Source: Planctomycetota bacterium (GTDB lineage Bacteria; Planctomycetota; MHYJ01; WSZJ01). From it: 64,000 bases of DNA. The position numbers were made by a program, and so were the translations under genes. The stretch lies in NCBI GenBank assembly GCA_038060895.1, contig JBBTCT010000007.1, forward strand, positions 68,023-132,022. Direction: 5' to 3'. Positions 56,579 through 64,000 of the stretch are shown here, in pieces (within the stretch, counting starts at the first letter, position 1; every line of letters begins with the position of its first letter). The notes beneath the pieces were generated by a model. The model saw only the letters and a program-made list of their open reading frames with translations. It was not told the origin of the DNA and made no database searches.

Positions 56579-57157
56579 CTACTTCTTTGCCGCCTCTTCC
56601 ATTTCCGCCATCCTCCCGCGCAGCTTCACGGCAACTTCCCAGCGTTTCGCTCTCGGGTTGTGCAGCGTCACGAGGGTGCGGATCTTGAGGCGCCCGACGC
56701 GCTTGCGGACGCCCTCGAGCAGATCCTCGCTGTCGGGGATCTGCATGGTGATGCGCGGGCCCTGCTCGGCGAGGCCCATCATGGCGGCGAAGGCGCGGAA
56801 GACGTCGGACTCGGTGAGCATGCCGACGACGGTGTCGTTTTTCACGACGGGAAGACCGGAGATCTTCTGCTTGAGCATGAGCAGCGCGGCGCTTTCGAAC
56901 GTGTCGTCGGGCGACACGGTGTAGGGCCCGGGCGTCATCACGTCCTCGATGATTTTCTTCGACGTCGAACGGTCTCCCTTGTGCCGGCCGAGTTCACTCT
57001 CCAGATCGCTCTTCGTGATGATCCCGACGAGCGTCCCGCTCTCGACGACAGGCAGGCGGCGGATGTGGTGCTTCTGCATGAATTCGAGCGCGACCGGGGC
57101 CGGCATGCGGGCCTGAATCGTGACGGCGGGGGAAGACATCCATTCGCGGACGAACAT
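56579..57157 (-). CDS. CBS-domain pair protein (AcuB-like)
   Basis: GAGGAG RBS; MFVREWMS, IRRLPVV..LVGIIT..D, ISGLPVV..VGMLTESD. Confidence 0.92.
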   Translation of the reverse strand: MFVREWMSSPAVTIQARMPAPVALEFMQKHHIRRLPVVESGTLVGIITKSDLESELGRHKGDRSTSKKIIEDVMTPGPYTVSPDDTFESAALLMLKQKISGLPVVKNDTVVGMLTESDVFRAFAAMMGLAEQGPRITMQIPDSEDLLEGVRKRVGRLKIRTLVTLHNPRAKRWEVAVKLRGRMAEMEEAAKK

Positions 57158-57206
57158 GGGAACTCCTCGGGGTGGGTGGAAGAGAGGGCATTGAAGGCAA
57201 AGGCGG

Positions 57207-57243
57207 CGAAACGAAAAACAAAAAACGAAAAGCGAAAACAAAA
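57207..57243. repeat. A-rich short tandem repeat
   Basis: About 5 degenerate C(G/A)AAA(A) units in the divergent promoter region. Confidence 0.55.
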
Positions 57244-57367
57244 CTCGGGCGTTTCCGGACCGTAGCAATGCTGCGGGAAGTAACGGTTCTCGTACAGCCT
57301 CTCACTCGCAGAGAGTGCGGCCCGGAACTTGCGCCATCGGGGAGCAGGCATTAACTCCGCCTTAACC

Positions 57368-57820
57368 ATGAGACGCCTCCTGACTCTTCGCTCCCCCGCT
57401 CTTTCGCGAGCCGTCGCCGCGACTTTTGTGGCGATGTACGCGCTGTTCGCGTCAGGGGCGGCGTTCGGGGCGCTGGACCTGGCTTGCCTGGAACTGGCAG
57501 CACCCCCGTGCAGCCCGGCTCCGGAGGCAGGAAAGAGCGGCTGCGGCTGCGGCCACGCAACCGACGACGGAGCAGGATGCTGCTGCTGTTCCAGGAAGGA
57601 AGCGTCCGCTCCGGAGACCGGCTTTTCATTCACGGCCGCGGCGCAGTGCTCCAATCCCGATTCCGGTTCGGCCGGCAGCATGACGCGCGTGTCGCCTCAC
57701 GTCGCCGCTGAAGCGGCCGAGGCTCCTTCCGTTCAACTCGCCCCGGCCTTCACGCCGCGGGTCCTTTCGCTTCAGTCCCATAAGTCCGCTCCGCCCGACA
57801 AGGTTCCGCTGGCGCACTGA
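57368..57820 (+). CDS. small exported Cys-rich leader protein (PPDKVP type)
   Basis: Hydrophobic N-terminus, CGCGH..CCCC cluster, Ala/Pro linker, ends SAPPDKVPLAH. Confidence 0.7.
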   Translation: MRRLLTLRSPALSRAVAATFVAMYALFASGAAFGALDLACLELAAPPCSPAPEAGKSGCGCGHATDDGAGCCCCSRKEASAPETGFSFTAAAQCSNPDSGSAGSMTRVSPHVAAEAAEAPSVQLAPAFTPRVLSLQSHKSAPPDKVPLAH

Positions 57821-57927
57821 TTTGTCGCGCCGGGCAAGGGCCGCGTGGCCCCTGCTCCCCCATCTACGGAACTTCGCGGCGCCGCCGCTCGACGGCGCGT
57901 CCGCGTCCCCTTCAGCGGAGCACCTCC

Positions 57928-58881
57928 ATGAAATCGTCGTGCCTGCTCGTGCTCGCACTCGCCTCGTTGCCGGCCGCGGCCGACCATGCCGCCGGATCCA
58001 CATCCAGCGACGGCGGACAGATGACGATGTCTCCGGACACGCTCGCTTCCGGGAAGCTGTTTGTCGCGCTTCGCCTGGACGCAGCCGACTTCGAACACGT
58101 TTCCGATGAAGAATTGCACGAAGCCGGCGAAGCGGGTCACAGCCGGCACGGGCTCGACTGGGCCGGCACGGCGGCGCTCGAAGGCGGGTTCGGGATTCTC
58201 GACCGCCTGATGGTCGGCGTCACCATTCCTGTCCGGAGGACGGACGACTTTCGTGAAGCCCCGCACCATGAGGAAGAAGTGGAGGAAGGAGAAGGGTCCA
58301 TTCGCAGCGTCGATCCGGACGGGCTCGGCGACGTCCAGATCTGGGCGCAGCTGAAGATCCTCGACGGGTCGTTCAAGCTCGGCGTACGGCTAGGCCTGGA
58401 GCTTCCGACCGGAGACACGAACGATCGCGGACCCCATGGGGACTATCTCGAGCCGAGTCATCAGGCGGGAAGCGGCTCCCTGGACTTCCTGGGCGGGATC
58501 GCGGCAGGCTATTCCCTCGAGTCCGTCGGAATCCAGGCGGCGCTCACGGGGAAGGTCAACACGCGCGGCGTCCGTGATTTCGAGATGGGCGACACCGTGA
58601 TGCTGTCCGTCGGGGGAAGCTGGCGCTTCTATGGAGAACCCCGAACATTCAGCCTCTCCGTGACCGCGGACGCCTGGGGCCAGTGGTACGGTCGCAACCG
58701 CCACCACGGCCGGGGCGACCCGGACTCGGGTGGATTCCAGTGGTATGCCGCACCGGGCCTCCGGCTCAACGCGGGCCCGTTCTTCGCCCAGCTCGCGGTC
58801 CCGATCCAGATCTACAATGGCGTCAACGAAGAACCCGACCAGCGGCTCCGCGGGGTCCTGACCGCCGGGCTGAACTTCTGA
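57928..58881 (+). CDS. His-rich outer membrane beta-barrel (MetA-pathway/transporter-like)
   Basis: Signal peptide; GLGDV, ELPTG, QAGSGSLD; alternating beta pattern; terminal Phe. Confidence 0.8.
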   Translation: MKSSCLLVLALASLPAAADHAAGSTSSDGGQMTMSPDTLASGKLFVALRLDAADFEHVSDEELHEAGEAGHSRHGLDWAGTAALEGGFGILDRLMVGVTIPVRRTDDFREAPHHEEEVEEGEGSIRSVDPDGLGDVQIWAQLKILDGSFKLGVRLGLELPTGDTNDRGPHGDYLEPSHQAGSGSLDFLGGIAAGYSLESVGIQAALTGKVNTRGVRDFEMGDTVMLSVGGSWRFYGEPRTFSLSVTADAWGQWYGRNRHHGRGDPDSGGFQWYAAPGLRLNAGPFFAQLAVPIQIYNGVNEEPDQRLRGVLTAGLNF

Positions 58882-58897: not shown

Positions 58898-59713
58898 ATG
58901 AATCACTTCAAGGCAGCAGTCATTGCAGCATTCATCCTGCCGCTCGTGGCGCGCGCCGAAGAGGCGCCCGTCGCGGGCGAGCCGGTGACGGTGTTCGTGA
59001 CGGACAAGGACGGCAAGCAGGTGGACACGGAGGGGATGACGGCGACGCTCACGGTGACGATCAAGGGCGCCGGGACGCGGACGGCGGCGCTGACGGCTCG
59101 CAACGCAACGGACCCCGCGGCGAAATCGCCGCCGGCCGAGCATGGCGGGCAGGTCGTTACGACCGCCGACGGATGGCGTGTCGAGTTCGTCCCGGCGTGG
59201 TCGCCCGGCAAGGCGCCGGACGCGCCGTGCTTCGAGGGAACGATCGCGCTCAAGGCGTGGGCATGCCCGATGGCCTGCGTCGATCCCTCGGACAAGGCCG
59301 GCAAGTGCTCGAAGTGCGGGATGGACTTCGAGCTCCTGTCTGTCGACTTCACCGCCAGCGTGTCGATCCGGGGAAAGGACTTCGCGCACGTCGCAAAGGG
59401 CTATGCTGTGCCGACTCCCCTTCCGGCCACCTATGCTGAGGCTGCGACCGAAGCGAAAGACCAGTCCGGATGGGCGTTGAAGAAGAGTTCGGCCGCGCTC
59501 CCACGAGTACGCCGCATACGACGGCTGTTGGAGGGCCTCGTGGAGCTCGCTTCGGCCGGCCAGAAGGACGCTGTGCGTGCGAAAGCGAAAGTGATCTGGA
59601 AGGCGTGCGACGAGGCGGAGAAGGCTCTCGTCGCCGGGCAGGATGCTTCGGAATCTCTCGAGCTCATCAACAAGAAAGTTTCCTCGCTGCCCGCGGAGGG
59701 CGGCGCAAAGTAG
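58898..59713 (+). CDS. secreted protein with heavy-metal-binding domain
   Basis: Signal peptide; EHGG; WACPM..SDKAGKCSKCGMD. Confidence 0.8.
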   Translation: MNHFKAAVIAAFILPLVARAEEAPVAGEPVTVFVTDKDGKQVDTEGMTATLTVTIKGAGTRTAALTARNATDPAAKSPPAEHGGQVVTTADGWRVEFVPAWSPGKAPDAPCFEGTIALKAWACPMACVDPSDKAGKCSKCGMDFELLSVDFTASVSIRGKDFAHVAKGYAVPTPLPATYAEAATEAKDQSGWALKKSSAALPRVRRIRRLLEGLVELASAGQKDAVRAKAKVIWKACDEAEKALVAGQDASESLELINKKVSSLPAEGGAK

Positions 59714-59856: not shown

Positions 59857-59968
59857 GTTCATTCCTCCCGCCCTCCGCGACCAGCGGAGTGCGGTTTTCC
59901 TGTGCCGAGCCCAGCGAATTGAGAATTGCTTCCCGGACCGGTGCGGTTTTCAGGTACAAGTGGGCCCG

Positions 59969-60310
59969 ATGCGATTCCGTTCGACTCTCAACGCTGCTGT
60001 CTTCGCACTGCTGGCCGTCGCGACCTTCGTCGCCGGCACGGCCGGCCCGCTTCACGAGATCGAGGCGCTTCACGGCCACGAGCATTGCGAAAGCGAAGAC
60101 GGCCAGCCGACAGTCGGACACGTCTGCCACGACGAAGACGATTGCACGGTCTGCGGCCTGCTCTCGCTTCCCTCCTCTGCTGAACCATGTTCTTCACCGG
60201 CGATTGCATCCGAAGCGCCGGCCACTGCTGGTTTCGTACTTTTGGAACGCGCCGTCGCCGCAACGCTCGACCTCAACTCTCCAGCGCGCGCGCCCCCTCC
60301 CCGGGCGTAG
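59969..60310 (+). CDS. DUF2946-like leader protein with C-terminal RAPP motif
   Basis: Signal-like N-terminus, H..H.H.HC..H.CH...CTVC, ends PARAPPPRA. Confidence 0.8.
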   Translation: MRFRSTLNAAVFALLAVATFVAGTAGPLHEIEALHGHEHCESEDGQPTVGHVCHDEDDCTVCGLLSLPSSAEPCSSPAIASEAPATAGFVLLERAVAATLDLNSPARAPPPRA

Positions 60311-60391: not shown

Positions 60392-61717
60392 ATGCGCATC
60401 GTGCTTGTCATGACGGCGCTTCTGGCGCCGCTGGCAGCCTGGGGACAGTCGGAAGAGTTGCAGAAGATCAGGGAAGAGCTGGAGATTTCGAAGAAGAGGA
60501 TCGATGAGCTGGAGAAGAAGGAAGCAGGGAAACCCGCAGACAAGTCTGTGACGCGGTCGAACGAGCCTTGGGCTGTGTCGCTAGGGAGCGGCGCGACGGC
60601 GCGGCTGATCGACGTGTCGCTGGACATCCTGGCGCTTGGAGGGACATCGACGGCCAGGGATGCGGAGCTGGACCTCCTGAACCCGGGGCATCACGACCCT
60701 GCCGGCCGGGGATTCACGCTTCAGAACGTCGAACTCACGCTTTCCGGCGCGGTTGACCCGTACTTCAACGCGGAAGCGCACATCACTTATGTGGTGAGCG
60801 ATTCTGGCGAGTCCGAGATCGAGCTGGAAGAAGCGTTTTTCACGACCACTTCCCTGCCCGGGGGCTTTCAGATCCGGGGCGGGCACAGTTTCCTGGAATT
60901 CGGACGCCAGAATCGGCAACACCCGCATGCGTGGCATTTCGTGGACCAGCCGGTCGTGTTCAGCCGGTTTTTCGGGGCTGACGGCCTGCGGTCGACGGGA
61001 GCCCAAGCGTCCTGGCTCGCGCCGACGCCCTTCTATCTCGAAGCGATTGCGGGCATCTACAACTCCTTCGGGGAGACGATGTTCTCGTTCAACCAGGATG
61101 AGGCGGAGGTCGTTCCGTCGTTCCTCGGGAGGCGGGATGTGCGCACCTGGCGGGACCTGGCGTATCTCGGCCGCTTGACGTCGACGCTCGACATCGGGGA
61201 GTCGATCGCGACCTCGTTCGGGGTTTCGTACATCCACGGGCCGAACGCCACGGGTAAGCACGCGGACACGGAAATCTACGGAGCCGACTTCTATATCCGT
61301 TGGAAACCGGTCCAGAACGAGCGCGGCTGGCCTTTCGTGCAGTTCCAGGCGGAATTCCTGATGCGCCGGTACGAACGGGGCAGCTTCGACGACGGAGCCG
61401 GATCGGAATTCGCCCATGAGTGGTTCCAGGACTGGGGGTACTACGCGCAGGCGGTCGTGGGGTTCGCTCCGGGCTGGACGGCCGGGCTTCGTTTCGACCG
61501 CGCCGACGGGGAACTCAACGCGCTCAATCCGCTCCACGACTCCCGCTACCGCATTTCGCCGGCGCTTACGTGGTACCCGACCGAGTTCAGCAAGATCCGG
61601 CTTCAGTACAACTACGACCACGCAAGGCACATCCGGACCGGGCACGGCAACGACGAACACTCGATCTGGCTCCAGGTCGAAGTCCTGATCGGCAAACACG
61701 GAGCCCACAAGTTCTGA
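60392..61717 (+). CDS. outer membrane beta-barrel associated with Zn/Mn uptake
   Basis: Signal peptide, short coiled coil, GHHDP, GAVDPYF, EEAF, FGRQNRQHPHAW, SKIRLQY, C-terminal GKHGAHKF. Confidence 0.85.
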   Translation: MRIVLVMTALLAPLAAWGQSEELQKIREELEISKKRIDELEKKEAGKPADKSVTRSNEPWAVSLGSGATARLIDVSLDILALGGTSTARDAELDLLNPGHHDPAGRGFTLQNVELTLSGAVDPYFNAEAHITYVVSDSGESEIELEEAFFTTTSLPGGFQIRGGHSFLEFGRQNRQHPHAWHFVDQPVVFSRFFGADGLRSTGAQASWLAPTPFYLEAIAGIYNSFGETMFSFNQDEAEVVPSFLGRRDVRTWRDLAYLGRLTSTLDIGESIATSFGVSYIHGPNATGKHADTEIYGADFYIRWKPVQNERGWPFVQFQAEFLMRRYERGSFDDGAGSEFAHEWFQDWGYYAQAVVGFAPGWTAGLRFDRADGELNALNPLHDSRYRISPALTWYPTEFSKIRLQYNYDHARHIRTGHGNDEHSIWLQVEVLIGKHGAHKF

Positions 61718-61785: not shown

Positions 61786-62772
61786 ATGAAAACACTTCTG
61801 CTCGCCTTGATGGCCGTGTCCGTCGCCGCGGCCGACGACAAGCTCGATGTCGTCACCACAATCCCGTCACTCGGCTCCGTTGCCCGTGAAGTCGGTGGCG
61901 ACCGCGTGTCCGTCAGCTCGCTCGCCCGTCCCGGCGAAGATCCCCACTTCGTGGACGCGAAACAGTCCTTGATGGTCAAAATGCGTGGAGCCGATCTCTT
62001 CATCGTCAACGGACTCGAACTCGAAATCGGCTGGGTCCCCCTCCTCCTCGAAGGATGCCGGAACGGGAAAATTCAGCCCGGAAGCGCCGGGTATCTCGAC
62101 GCGTCGGCTTTCGTGCGGGTCATCGACGTGCCGAAAGGCCCCGTTGACCGGTCCATGGGGGATGTCCACCCCATGGGAAATCCGCACTTCAGCCTCGACC
62201 CGCTCGCGCTCCGCGGCATCGCCGGCGGGCTCGCAGTGAAGCTGTCCGCGCTGGACCCCGGAGGAAAGGAGGTCTACGAAAGAAACCGTAAGGCCTACGA
62301 GCGGAAGATCGATGAAGCGCTTTTCGGCGCCGAACTGGTGGACGAGGCCGGAGGCTCGAAGCTGGCCCAGGTTGCCGCGGACGGCAAACTCGACGAGTTC
62401 CTGGCGGAACAGAAGCTGGCGGACCAGGTGGGCGGCTGGCTGAAGGTCATGGCCGACGCGAAGGGGAAGGAAGTGATCGCCTACCACGCGAGCATGAACT
62501 ACTTCTGGAACCGGTTCGGCCTGAAGCTCGCAGGCACCATCGAAGAGAAACCGGGCATTTCTCCCTCGAGCAGCCAGGTGAATTCCATCATCGAACTCGC
62601 CCGCGCACGGAAGATCCGGGCCGTCGTGACCCAGCCGTTCTTCAGCGACAGCGCCCCGAACCTGATCGCGGAGAAATCGGGCGCGAAGGTCGTCAAGGTC
62701 GACATCGAAGGCGATGACGCCATCGCCATCATCGACCACGTGGTGACGGAGGTCGCGGGCGCACTCAAATGA
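61786..62772 (+). CDS. metal ABC transporter substrate-binding protein (ZnuA/MntC family)
   Basis: EDPHFV, NGLELEIGW, GDVHPMGNPHF.LDP, YH, IEEKPGISPS. Confidence 0.92.
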   Translation: MKTLLLALMAVSVAAADDKLDVVTTIPSLGSVAREVGGDRVSVSSLARPGEDPHFVDAKQSLMVKMRGADLFIVNGLELEIGWVPLLLEGCRNGKIQPGSAGYLDASAFVRVIDVPKGPVDRSMGDVHPMGNPHFSLDPLALRGIAGGLAVKLSALDPGGKEVYERNRKAYERKIDEALFGAELVDEAGGSKLAQVAADGKLDEFLAEQKLADQVGGWLKVMADAKGKEVIAYHASMNYFWNRFGLKLAGTIEEKPGISPSSSQVNSIIELARARKIRAVVTQPFFSDSAPNLIAEKSGAKVVKVDIEGDDAIAIIDHVVTEVAGALK

Positions 62773-64000
62773 TCGAACTCAGCAAGATCGACGTGCTCCT
62801 CTGGCCATTCCTCGCGTGCCTCGTGCTCGTGGGAATCCACGGCTACCTGGGCATCCACGTCCTGGCGCGCAAGGTCATCTTCGTGGACCTCGCCATGGCC
62901 CAGATCGCCGCGCTGGGCGGCACCGTCGCATTCCTTTACGGGCACGAGATCGGCACGCCGACGGGGTACTTCCTCTCGCTCGGCTTCACCCTCGCGGGCG
63001 CGGGAGTGTTCGCGCTCACCCGGACGCGACACGAAAGCGTGCCGCAGGAAGCGGTCATTGGCCTCGTGTACGCGATCGCGACCGCGGTCGCCGTCCTCCT
63101 CGCAGACCGGGCGGCGCACGGCGGTGAACATCTGAAGGCTCTTCTCTCCGGCAGCATCGTCTGGGTCACGTGGAAGCAGGTCGCCAAAACGGCTGCTATC
63201 TACGCTGCGGTCGGGGCATTCCACTACGCTTACCGCGCTAAATTCCTGAAGATTTCCTTCGATCCCGAAGGCGCCGCAGCCGAAGGCATCAACGTCCGCC
63301 TCTGGGACTTCCTCTTTTACCTCTCGTTCGGCTTCGTCATCACCTCCTCGGTCTCCATCGCAGGAGTCCTTCTGGTCTTCTGCTACCTCATCGCGCCCGC
63401 CGTCGTCGCGACCCTTTTCGCTCAGTCCGTACGCGGCCGCCTCCTCATGGGCTGGTGTGTCGGCACGCTCGTCTCCGCCCTCGGGCTTCTCTTTTCCTGG
63501 GACCGCCCCAGCGGGCCCACCATCATCGGCTTCTTCGCTGCCTTCCTTGCCCTCGCGGCCGTCGGCAAGGCCGTGTTCCTGGCGCAAAGCCGCGCCCGCG
63601 CGCTGGCCATCGCCGGATGCGGAGCCGCACTTCTCACTCTCGCCGGCTTCTTCGTCGTCCACTTCCTCAAGTCCACCGGCAACGATCCCGAGCACACCCA
63701 TCTCCCGCCCCGCCACGCCGCCGGCGACACTCCCGAGGAGCTTCACCTGAGCCTCAACGACGTTCACTCCGACGTCCGCGCGGCGGCGGCACGGACGCTG
63801 GGAGAGAAGGGACGGCGGGAAGCGGTGCCGATGCTTCGCAATCTTCTCCGTGATCCGGACGCGCACGTGCGCGAAGAGGCCGCGAAGGCGCTCGGAGTTC
63901 TGCAGGCGAAGGAAGCCATTCCGGATCTGAAGCGCCTCGCGGAGACGCCGGATGAACACGAGTACGTTCCGCTGGAGGCGGCACGGGCGCTGGCGGAGAT
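62769..64000 (+). CDS. metal ABC transporter permease (ZnuB-like) fused to HEAT repeats, truncated by the window edge
   Basis: Translated by hand; absent from the ORF track because no stop falls in the window. GIHVLARKVIFVDLAMAQIAALG, AGVLLVFCYLIAP, then in-frame DVRAAAARTLG, LLRDPDAHVREEAAKALG. Confidence 0.88.
   Translation, partial: MIELSKIDVLLWPFLACLVLVGIHGYLGIHVLARKVIFVDLAMAQIAALGGTVAFLYGHEIGTPTGYFLSLGFTLAGAGVFALTRTRHESVPQEAVIGLVYAIATAVAVLLADRAAHGGEHLKALLSGSIVWVTWKQVAKTAAIYAAVGAFHYAYRAKFLKISFDPEGAAAEGINVRLWDFLFYLSFGFVITSSVSIAGVLLVFCYLIAPAVVATLFAQSVRGRLLMGWCVGTLVSALGLLFSWDRPSGPTIIGFFAAFLALAAVGKAVFLAQSRARALAIAGCGAALLTLAGFFVVHFLKSTGNDPEHTHLPPRHAAGDTPEELHLSLNDVHSDVRAAAARTLGEKGRREAVPMLRNLLRDPDAHVREEAAKALGVLQAKEAIPDLKRLAETPDEHEYVPLEAARALAE

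Follow-up and report, generated by a model that had tools for sequence, protein, structure and literature searches.

A Cys-rich, proline-tailed leader ahead of an outer-membrane barrel gene in a planctomycete: a possible metal-sensing arrest leader comparable to CruR and CutF

The window analysed here, a stretch of 64,000 nucleotides (nt) from a Planctomycetota bacterium (contig JBBTCT010000007.1, positions 68,023 to 132,022), contains an open reading frame (ORF) for a Cys-rich protein of 150 amino acids (aa) at 57368..57820, which is followed by a gene for an outer-membrane β-barrel at 57928..58881; all features are on the plus strand unless stated otherwise. Our best explanation, to which we assign a probability of roughly 0.45, is that this ORF would be a cis-acting, metal-sensing arrest leader that works like CruR and CutF and is unrelated to them in sequence. 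This explanation rests on comparison, namely on the conservation of a C-terminal motif and of Cys residues, on gene order, on a predicted pairing between the last codons of the leader and the barrel gene's Shine–Dalgarno (SD) sequence, on compensatory changes in that pairing and on its locus-specific complementarity. From these we infer the pausing, the metal sensing, the sign of the response and the identity of the metal, with copper as the favoured guess. The locus may thus represent a sequence-unrelated planctomycete form of a known kind of switch, the mechanism of which has been published for CruR and CutF.

The leader protein contains the Cys cluster C59-G-C61-G-H63 and C71-C72-C73-C74 (57542..57589), where the original prediction had already seen CGCGH and CCCC, a further Cys94 (codon 57647..57649) and, two residues ahead of the stop, the motif P142-P-D-K-V-P-L148 (57791..57811) with the core D-K-V-P-L, so that its C-terminus reads SAPPDKVPLAH. 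An alignment of 19 sequences of the leader clade, which are 24-73% identical to the window protein, shows C61, C71-73, C94, K145 and P147 as invariant (19/19) and Y24, C59 and H111 as near-invariant. The pattern [DE]K[VI]P[LI] is present in all 19, at 0-7 residues from the stop, and the distance from CCC to the Lys varies little, at 68-73 residues in 16 of them and 75-79 in the other three. Of the conservation that had been proposed for PPDKVP, the Lys and the last Pro stand, while the two prolines before the Asp are missing in five sequences (L006, P0006, L011, L008 and L012; L, P and G numbers are our designations), which have PE, GI or EL instead. The codons of the motif differ among loci (Val GTT, GTC, GTG or GTA; Pro CCG, CCC or CCT; Lys AAG or AAA) and therefore selection acts on the peptide. 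The earlier claim of a proline motif other than RAPP near the C-terminus of a Cys-rich, leader-like ORF is thereby borne out, with a conserved peptide and varying codons. SAPP was considered as an equivalent of RAPP and was rejected, since the position is not conserved: S-A-P-P in the window corresponds to LSPP, ASPE, GGID and RELD in relatives.

The motif has a wider family context. A phylum-wide alignment of 26 sequences retains only C59, C61, C71-73 and P147 as invariant, with Cys94 kept in at least 90%, and the Cys pattern of the family is CxC, CCC and Cys94, with no CXXC. A proline motif was found within the last 17 residues at all of 25 further loci, with the tails PPEKPPR (13), PP[AED]PPPR (6) and DKVP[IL] (3) and, in the remaining three, PPIEKPPR, SPLERPPE and PPVKVPR, which gives the family-wide C-terminal consensus PP[DE][KP][PV]P[RLI]. 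Because the wider relatives carry polyproline tails, the [DE]K[VI]P[LI] motif of the window's clade appears to be a derived form of such a tail. APP and PPD are strong polyproline stalling contexts, and the window carries A-P-P-D; EF-P is encoded in the genome. A word-indexed search of 5.8 billion proteins gave five matches including the leader itself, HMMER gave 11 representatives at E<=1e-3 among 1.84 billion, and 8 of 61 related genomes had matches; a broader profile matched in 38 of 401 genomes sampled across the phylum. Scans of metagenomes and genome collections yielded just two additional loci, and contigs from three DNA sequencing runs were identical to the window while a fourth run gave none, so that no extra variants were obtained. 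Profile searches with the leader ORF gave no match in Pfam or NCBIfam.

At the RNA level, the SD of the barrel gene is predicted to be base-paired in the resting transcript. The SD strand GCGGAGC (57915..57921), which holds GGAG at 57917-20, 7 nt ahead of the ATG at 57928, pairs in ensemble folds of three sequence ranges with the anti-SD GCUCCGC at 57788..57794 (Ala141 GCT, Pro142 CCG and the first base of Pro143) with a probability of 0.97-0.98, and the GGAG bases have a probability of being unpaired of at most 0.012. A second helix joins the K-V-P codons (AGGUUCCG, 57801..57808) to CGGAACUU in the intergenic region (57867..57874; p 0.93), and the intergenic region of 107 nt (57821..57927) is predicted to form three inner hairpins. 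The complete 181-nt fold has a z-score of -2.6 against dinucleotide shuffles. By a rough six-frame genome proxy the pairing codons are rare (Ala GCT 9%, Val GTT 14%, Ser TCT 6%).

The original prediction, that the last codons of the leader pair with the SD of the barrel gene, therefore holds by way of 57788-94, where the pairing is compensatory and locus-specific. Its exact model is highly improbable. In that model the V-P-L codons at 57803-12 act as the anti-SD for 57912-21, and the complementarity is real: GTTCCGCTGG at 57803-57812, made up of the codons for V146-P147-L148 and one more base, matches TCAGCGGAGC at 57912-57921 over 10 bp with two G-U pairs. Taken as an isolated duplex it is also the best that the last 16 codons can form with the SD segment (-17.8 to -18.1 kcal/mol); 4.3% of 2000 synonymous recodings match the -17.8 kcal/mol, and the duplex is thus only weakly above chance. 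L002, L004 and L006 allow a weaker equivalent of 6-9 bp, and the helix could form transiently when 57867-74 is unavailable. As a helix that forms in the window, however, it has an ensemble probability of 0.001-0.003 and lies 7.7-8.6 kcal/mol above the minimum free energy (MFE) structure, and 57788-94 is the partner in the consensus fold and in the compensatory changes. The pairing of 57803-12 with 57912-21 was rejected as the operative structure on its ensemble probability and on the consensus fold of four loci, and the segment (GUUCCGCUGG, 57803..57812), which had been proposed for its complementarity to 57912-21, is kept as a possible alternative partner only.

Comparison among loci used an RNA alignment of the window with L002, L004 and L006 from about codon 130 to the barrel start; these sequences are related and have a mean column identity of 75%. 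The RNAalifold consensus has 39 pairs in five helices and is closed by the anti-SD:SD helix 57788-94/57915-21. In this structure 91% of the cells are paired and five pairs are changed on both sides, three of which sit in the 7-bp SD helix. The helix reads GCUCC/GGAGC in the window and L002 and UCUCC/GGAGA in L004 and L006, and it extends to 9 bp in L006 (UCUCCCGAG:CUCGGGAGA). Slid controls gave 40-50% paired cells and 0-2 two-sided changes, and 3-26 of 500 shuffles reached the values observed for the consensus structure. Helix 2 is kept in three of the four loci and broken in L006. As a separate observation, GGAG-NNN-CUCC-AUG (57917-57930) is identical in all four loci of the clade except for its 3-nt loop (CAC, CAC, AUU, AUA); GGAG-NNN-CUCC is a possible small local hairpin able to mask the SD again, with an ensemble probability of 0.001-0.016 in the window.

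The relation between motif and SD was extended to 11 loci with spacers of at most 147 nt, in a search space of 132-248 nt, leaving out L011, L008, L012 and L037 (different downstream gene or contig end) and L001 (duplicate of L004). In 9 of the 11 the best SD partner is located between -20 and +22 nt relative to the invariant Pro codon. This partner is upstream of the motif in L007 and in the window's clade; in L009, L010 and L033 it coincides with the motif or follows it. When SDs were swapped between loci, the motif region had a mean energy of -14.7 kcal/mol with its own SD versus -10.6 kcal/mol with those of other loci (permutation p 5e-5 for the 11 loci and 1e-4 for nine loci, without the two nearest kin). 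The complementarity between motif and SD is therefore locus-specific.

These results suggest how a pause could be coupled to expression of the barrel gene. The RNA from codon 141 to the barrel start would fold into five helices closed by the anti-SD:SD pairing. A ribosome paused on the motif, with K145, V146 or P147 in the P site, would cover both 5' strands and hold the structure open, which would allow another ribosome to initiate at 57928; the pause may also keep Rho off the C-rich spacer. If the ribosome instead continues to the stop, 57788-94 would be uncovered and the SD helix would re-form. Whether the ribosome pauses would depend on metal binding by the Cys cluster, which precedes the motif by 68-79 residues and would already have emerged. 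The geometry was modelled with a ribosome footprint taken as about -15 to +16 (mRNA channel). With V146 in the P site the footprint starts at 57788, so that both the anti-SD and helix 2 lie under it, and the constrained MFE structure no longer contains the SD helix. When the P site holds the last sense codon, 57788-94 is exposed and the constrained MFE structure regains the SD helix. The geometry therefore separates a pause from termination in the window's clade. It is conceivable, but doubtful, that D/E-K-V/I-P-L/I is a new arrest motif that needs no consecutive prolines, that evolved from a PP[DE][KP]PPR staller and that is under the control of a CxC/CCC cluster some 70 residues distant on the nascent chain, which senses metal outside the ribosome, with codons that double as the anti-SD of the channel gene. 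The natural variants of the family (PPPR, KPPR and KVP without PP) could help to work out what the ribosome reads.

Several points weigh against this explanation. Firstly, the covariation comes from four related sequences and probably reflects one or two events, and the best SD partner of L004 and L036 lies away from the motif. Proline codons are inherently complementary to GGAG. The recoding test is weak: with the codon usage of G000 applied to all loci, the fractions of recodings at or below the native energy were 0.043, 0.30, 0.088, 0.012, 0.225, 0.044, 0.96 and 0.38 in eight loci. Secondly, the energy needed to open the SD of the window hardly changes in footprint-constrained folds (8.7 kcal/mol in the free RNA, 7.7-8.1 with a stalled ribosome and 8.6 with the ribosome at the stop), and likewise in L002, L004 and L006, because the SD then pairs with other C-rich segments or with the start of the barrel gene; it falls in L007, L009 and L010, but to the same extent when the ribosome is at the stop. 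Direct masking of the SD by the last codons is unlikely in the low-GC and f18 clades because the spacers there measure 167-456 nt. Lastly, the family shows no sequence relation to the leaders it would resemble. PF11162 (DUF2946) matched none of 19 clade members at E<=10, none of 12 wider members at E<=1 and the window ORF not at E<=0.01, and hhalign of the 19-sequence set against five RAPP leaders, a local stand-in and not the PF11162 seed, gave a probability of 1.7% with only the hydrophobic N-terminus aligned.

The small difference in SD opening between stalled and terminating ribosomes would suit another explanation, in which the product of the ORF is an ordinary, membrane-anchored protein of the periplasm that binds metal or acts as a chaperone, its proline tail binds a partner such as the barrel, and the SD pairing serves plain translational coupling without arrest, as any ribosome translating the last codons would open the helix. 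A product of 150 aa with five invariant Cys suits a metal-cluster protein that folds only with metal, which would explain the low model confidence described below, and the anti-SD of L009, L010 and L033, being at the motif or past it, is also covered by a terminating ribosome. In the window's clade, however, the anti-SD lies 12-18 nt upstream of the Pro codon and a terminating ribosome would leave it free. Beyond the anchor and the Cys, moreover, conservation is limited to the extreme C-terminal proline motif, as in CruR and CutF, this motif is a classical polyproline stretch (EKPPR or PPPR) in many relatives, and the leader stands directly ahead of the next gene, with a spacer of 31-456 nt, in 27 loci. 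We consider a working protein of this kind unlikely, if a serious alternative to an arrest leader.

The composition of the spacer points to a further route, in which, as in CruR, an arrested ribosome keeps Rho off the C-rich spacer until binding of metal frees the ribosome, leading to termination before the barrel gene. The 107-nt spacer has 47 C and 33 G, whereas C is about equal to G in the window overall, the five loci of the window's clade have C/G ratios of 1.25-1.84, and the genome encodes two Rho genes, which together make such a route possible. A search of 57100-58000 revealed no intrinsic terminator and no Rfam family, the two sub-threshold Rfam matches being on the minus strand (22 and 16 bits versus cut-offs of 50). 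CruR itself acts via Rho with a spacer of 162 nt (PMC9426467; PMC9973294). On the other hand, the spacer is predicted to be almost fully base-paired, which is ill-suited to Rho loading, and a C/G ratio above 1.2 is seen in only 11 of 24 family spacers, with none of the long, low-GC ones among them. SD masking would be secondary in this scheme, which we regard as quite unlikely and which is compatible with a metal-sensing arrest leader as proposed above.

CruR (Bp2923) of Bordetella pertussis belongs to DUF2946; copper relieves its arrest and Rho terminates (PMC9426467). CutF of Rhodobacter capsulatus (cutFOG) is assigned to DUF2946 or 'CutF-like' (PMC9973294; bioRxiv 10.1101/2025.02.05.636593). 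The design of both is described as experimentally supported, they respond to copper in opposite ways and their mechanisms are called still largely unknown (PMC9426467; bioRxiv 10.1101/2025.02.05.636593). Nascent-chain sensing of metal with translation arrest as output is known only from these two proteobacterial DUF2946 proteins. If the reading of D/E-K-V/I-P-L/I as a new arrest motif is true, the family would be an independent planctomycete invention of the CruR/CutF principle, and an unrelated family with the same anatomy in another phylum would make the design a recurrent solution.

CutF and the window leader are alike as small exported proteins with a Cys motif and a C-terminal proline motif, encoded ahead of a regulated gene. 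In CutF the SD of the following gene is shielded by an RNA structure, which is proposed to be melted by a stalled ribosome; the SD in the window is predicted to be masked likewise. They differ in their Cys motifs (CxC and CCC in the window leader versus CxxxC in CutF) and tails (DKVP[LI] or PP[DE][KP][PV]P[RLI] versus PPP), in the anti-SD, which lies within the last codons of the window leader but in a separate intergenic stem-loop in CutF, and in the downstream gene, an outer-membrane barrel versus a multicopper oxidase. Shared between CruR and the window leader are the upstream position of an ORF of about 145 aa, the export signal, the Cys motif, the near-stop motif and the long spacer, and CruR heads an outer-membrane uptake gene as the window leader precedes an outer-membrane barrel. 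CruR, however, has CXXC and RAPP 45 residues apart and acts through Rho, while in the window's clade CCC and DKVP are 68-79 residues apart and the leader has no RAPP and no Pfam match. SecM-secA and the RAPP and RQH arrest peptides also use a C-terminal arrest motif in an exported leader to expose a downstream SD, but they monitor the Sec/YidC machinery and not metals (PMC10987492). The motifs given in the relevant part of that work (RAPP-like, KYxIW, LPPP, NSP-stop, NAP-stop and DGMK-stop) do not include DKVP[LI] or PPEKPPR. A literature search for tail-motif strings of the leader family (e.g. PPDKVP and PPEKPPR) found them in no paper of the collection searched.

The locus does contain a leader of the RAPP type. 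A second ORF at 59960-60310 (+), 2.1 kb downstream, encodes a His/Cys-rich protein of 116 aa (113 aa from 59969) with a weak match to DUF2946 (E 0.0085). It has CTVC at 62-65 and RAPP at 110-113, with 44 residues between them and three residues after the motif, and its relatives end in ...ARAPPxx. The P-P-P-R codons CUCCCCG (60297-303) pair in the MFE structure with CGGGGAG (60378-84), the SD of a 441-aa gene at 60392, in a fold that is no better than shuffles (z 0.40). From its sequence, the DUF2946-like RAPP leader of the locus thus appears to be ORF 59960-60310 and not 57368-57820; homology of the latter to its RAPP neighbour or to DUF2946 was rejected (BLASTP E 0.12 over 9 residues, no Pfam matches, and the hhalign result given above). 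Both leaders occur on one contig in G005.

The downstream β-barrel gene named in the original prediction is supported by structure modelling. Its product of 317 aa is predicted to have a COG4313/FapF fold (AlphaFold2, predicted template modelling score 0.72), with Foldseek matches to FapF (5o67/5o65, E about 6e-11 to 1e-10) and to the COG4313 channel 4rl8 (E 9e-10) at template modelling (TM) scores of 0.57-0.70. The model shares its fold with the COG4313/FapF channels (4rl8, 5o65; PF13557), and the barrel-position genes of L036 and L054 match PF13557 (E 8e-10 and 2e-8). Unlike these channels, the window barrel has no Pfam match, PF13557 included, and it has a His/Gly-rich N-terminus (DH..GS...GGGQ) and stands within a metal-type gene row. 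The leader marks it as a candidate metal channel. The third gene (58898..59713) encodes a protein of 271 aa with a signal peptide and a weak match to the HMBD family PF19335 (E 2.6e-4; 21.3 bits, under the cut-off of 23.6). Beyond it the row continues with the RAPP leader, the 441-aa protein, which belongs to no family, a ZnuA-like protein and a ZnuB-HEAT protein. Judged by this gene order, the leader is probably the first gene of a metal-related operon. The ZnuB-HEAT gene (62769-63998, +) encodes an ABC-3/ZnuB-type permease (PF00950, E 1.6e-26) with C-terminal HEAT repeats (HEAT_2, E 3.2e-17) and extends beyond the edge of the window.

The leader stands immediately ahead of a barrel gene in eight loci (the window, L002, L004, L006, L007, L009, L010 and L033), with spacers of 31-147 nt, and the next gene there encodes about 320 aa; L005 has a short ORF in between. 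It was directly upstream of the next gene in all 27 loci with an identified downstream gene. In other clades the downstream genes are weakly DUF1775/YcnI-like (E 0.0012, under the cut-off) or DUF1559, with the long spacers given above. The leaders of L012, L045 and L053 precede DUF1559/prepilin-type genes, which Pfam confirmed for L045 and L053, whereas no gene was identified downstream of those of L011 and L008; in the low-GC clade L035-L055 there are 200-456 nt between the PPEKPPR leaders and the next gene, leaving room for further elements.

The N-terminus of the leader is Arg-rich and continues into a hydrophobic helix at residues 10-40, which is kept in the family alignment. An AlphaFold2 model made with the 19-sequence alignment has a mean predicted local distance difference test (pLDDT) score of 61.6. 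Two helices at 10-29 and 31-40 are its sole confidently modelled part (block pLDDT 88-93), and they delimit a predicted membrane anchor or signal segment at about residues 10-40 (57395..57487). Further on pLDDT is about 46-70, and the protein outside the membrane helix is not predicted to fold. Such an N-terminus would fit an export signal or an N-in/C-out anchor, as in CruR and CutF. The nearest clusters in the ESM Atlas are unnamed hypothetical proteins, and all structure matches have TM < 0.3. Upstream, the leader is divergent from a CBS-domain gene on the minus strand (start 57160). The region ahead of the leader, in which no sigma-70-like promoter was found, has an A-rich tract between the two genes (aaaggcggcgaaacgaaaaacaaaaaacgaaaagcgaaaacaaaac, 57196-57255). 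A similar A-rich tract is present in L002 and L006, where it appears as the read-through translation KRKTKNEKQ or KRKTKREKQ.

Lastly, further members of the leader family and other leader-like ORFs occur in relatives. G003 and G001 have two leader-family copies each, and L011, L008, L012, L045 and L053 are leader paralogues or clade members with the tails GGIDKVPL, RELDKVPL or PP[AE]PPPR. Other leader-like small ORFs, in L013, L021, L015, L020 and L014, suggest that more than one family of metal leaders with a proline tail exists in the lineage; some of them are His-rich with HCCC and end in HVPIA, FHVPKA or FHPPRA. One ORF of this set ends in DRGPPSA, and another, directly ahead of a ZnuB-like gene, ends in SRAPPGFRSLPGD.

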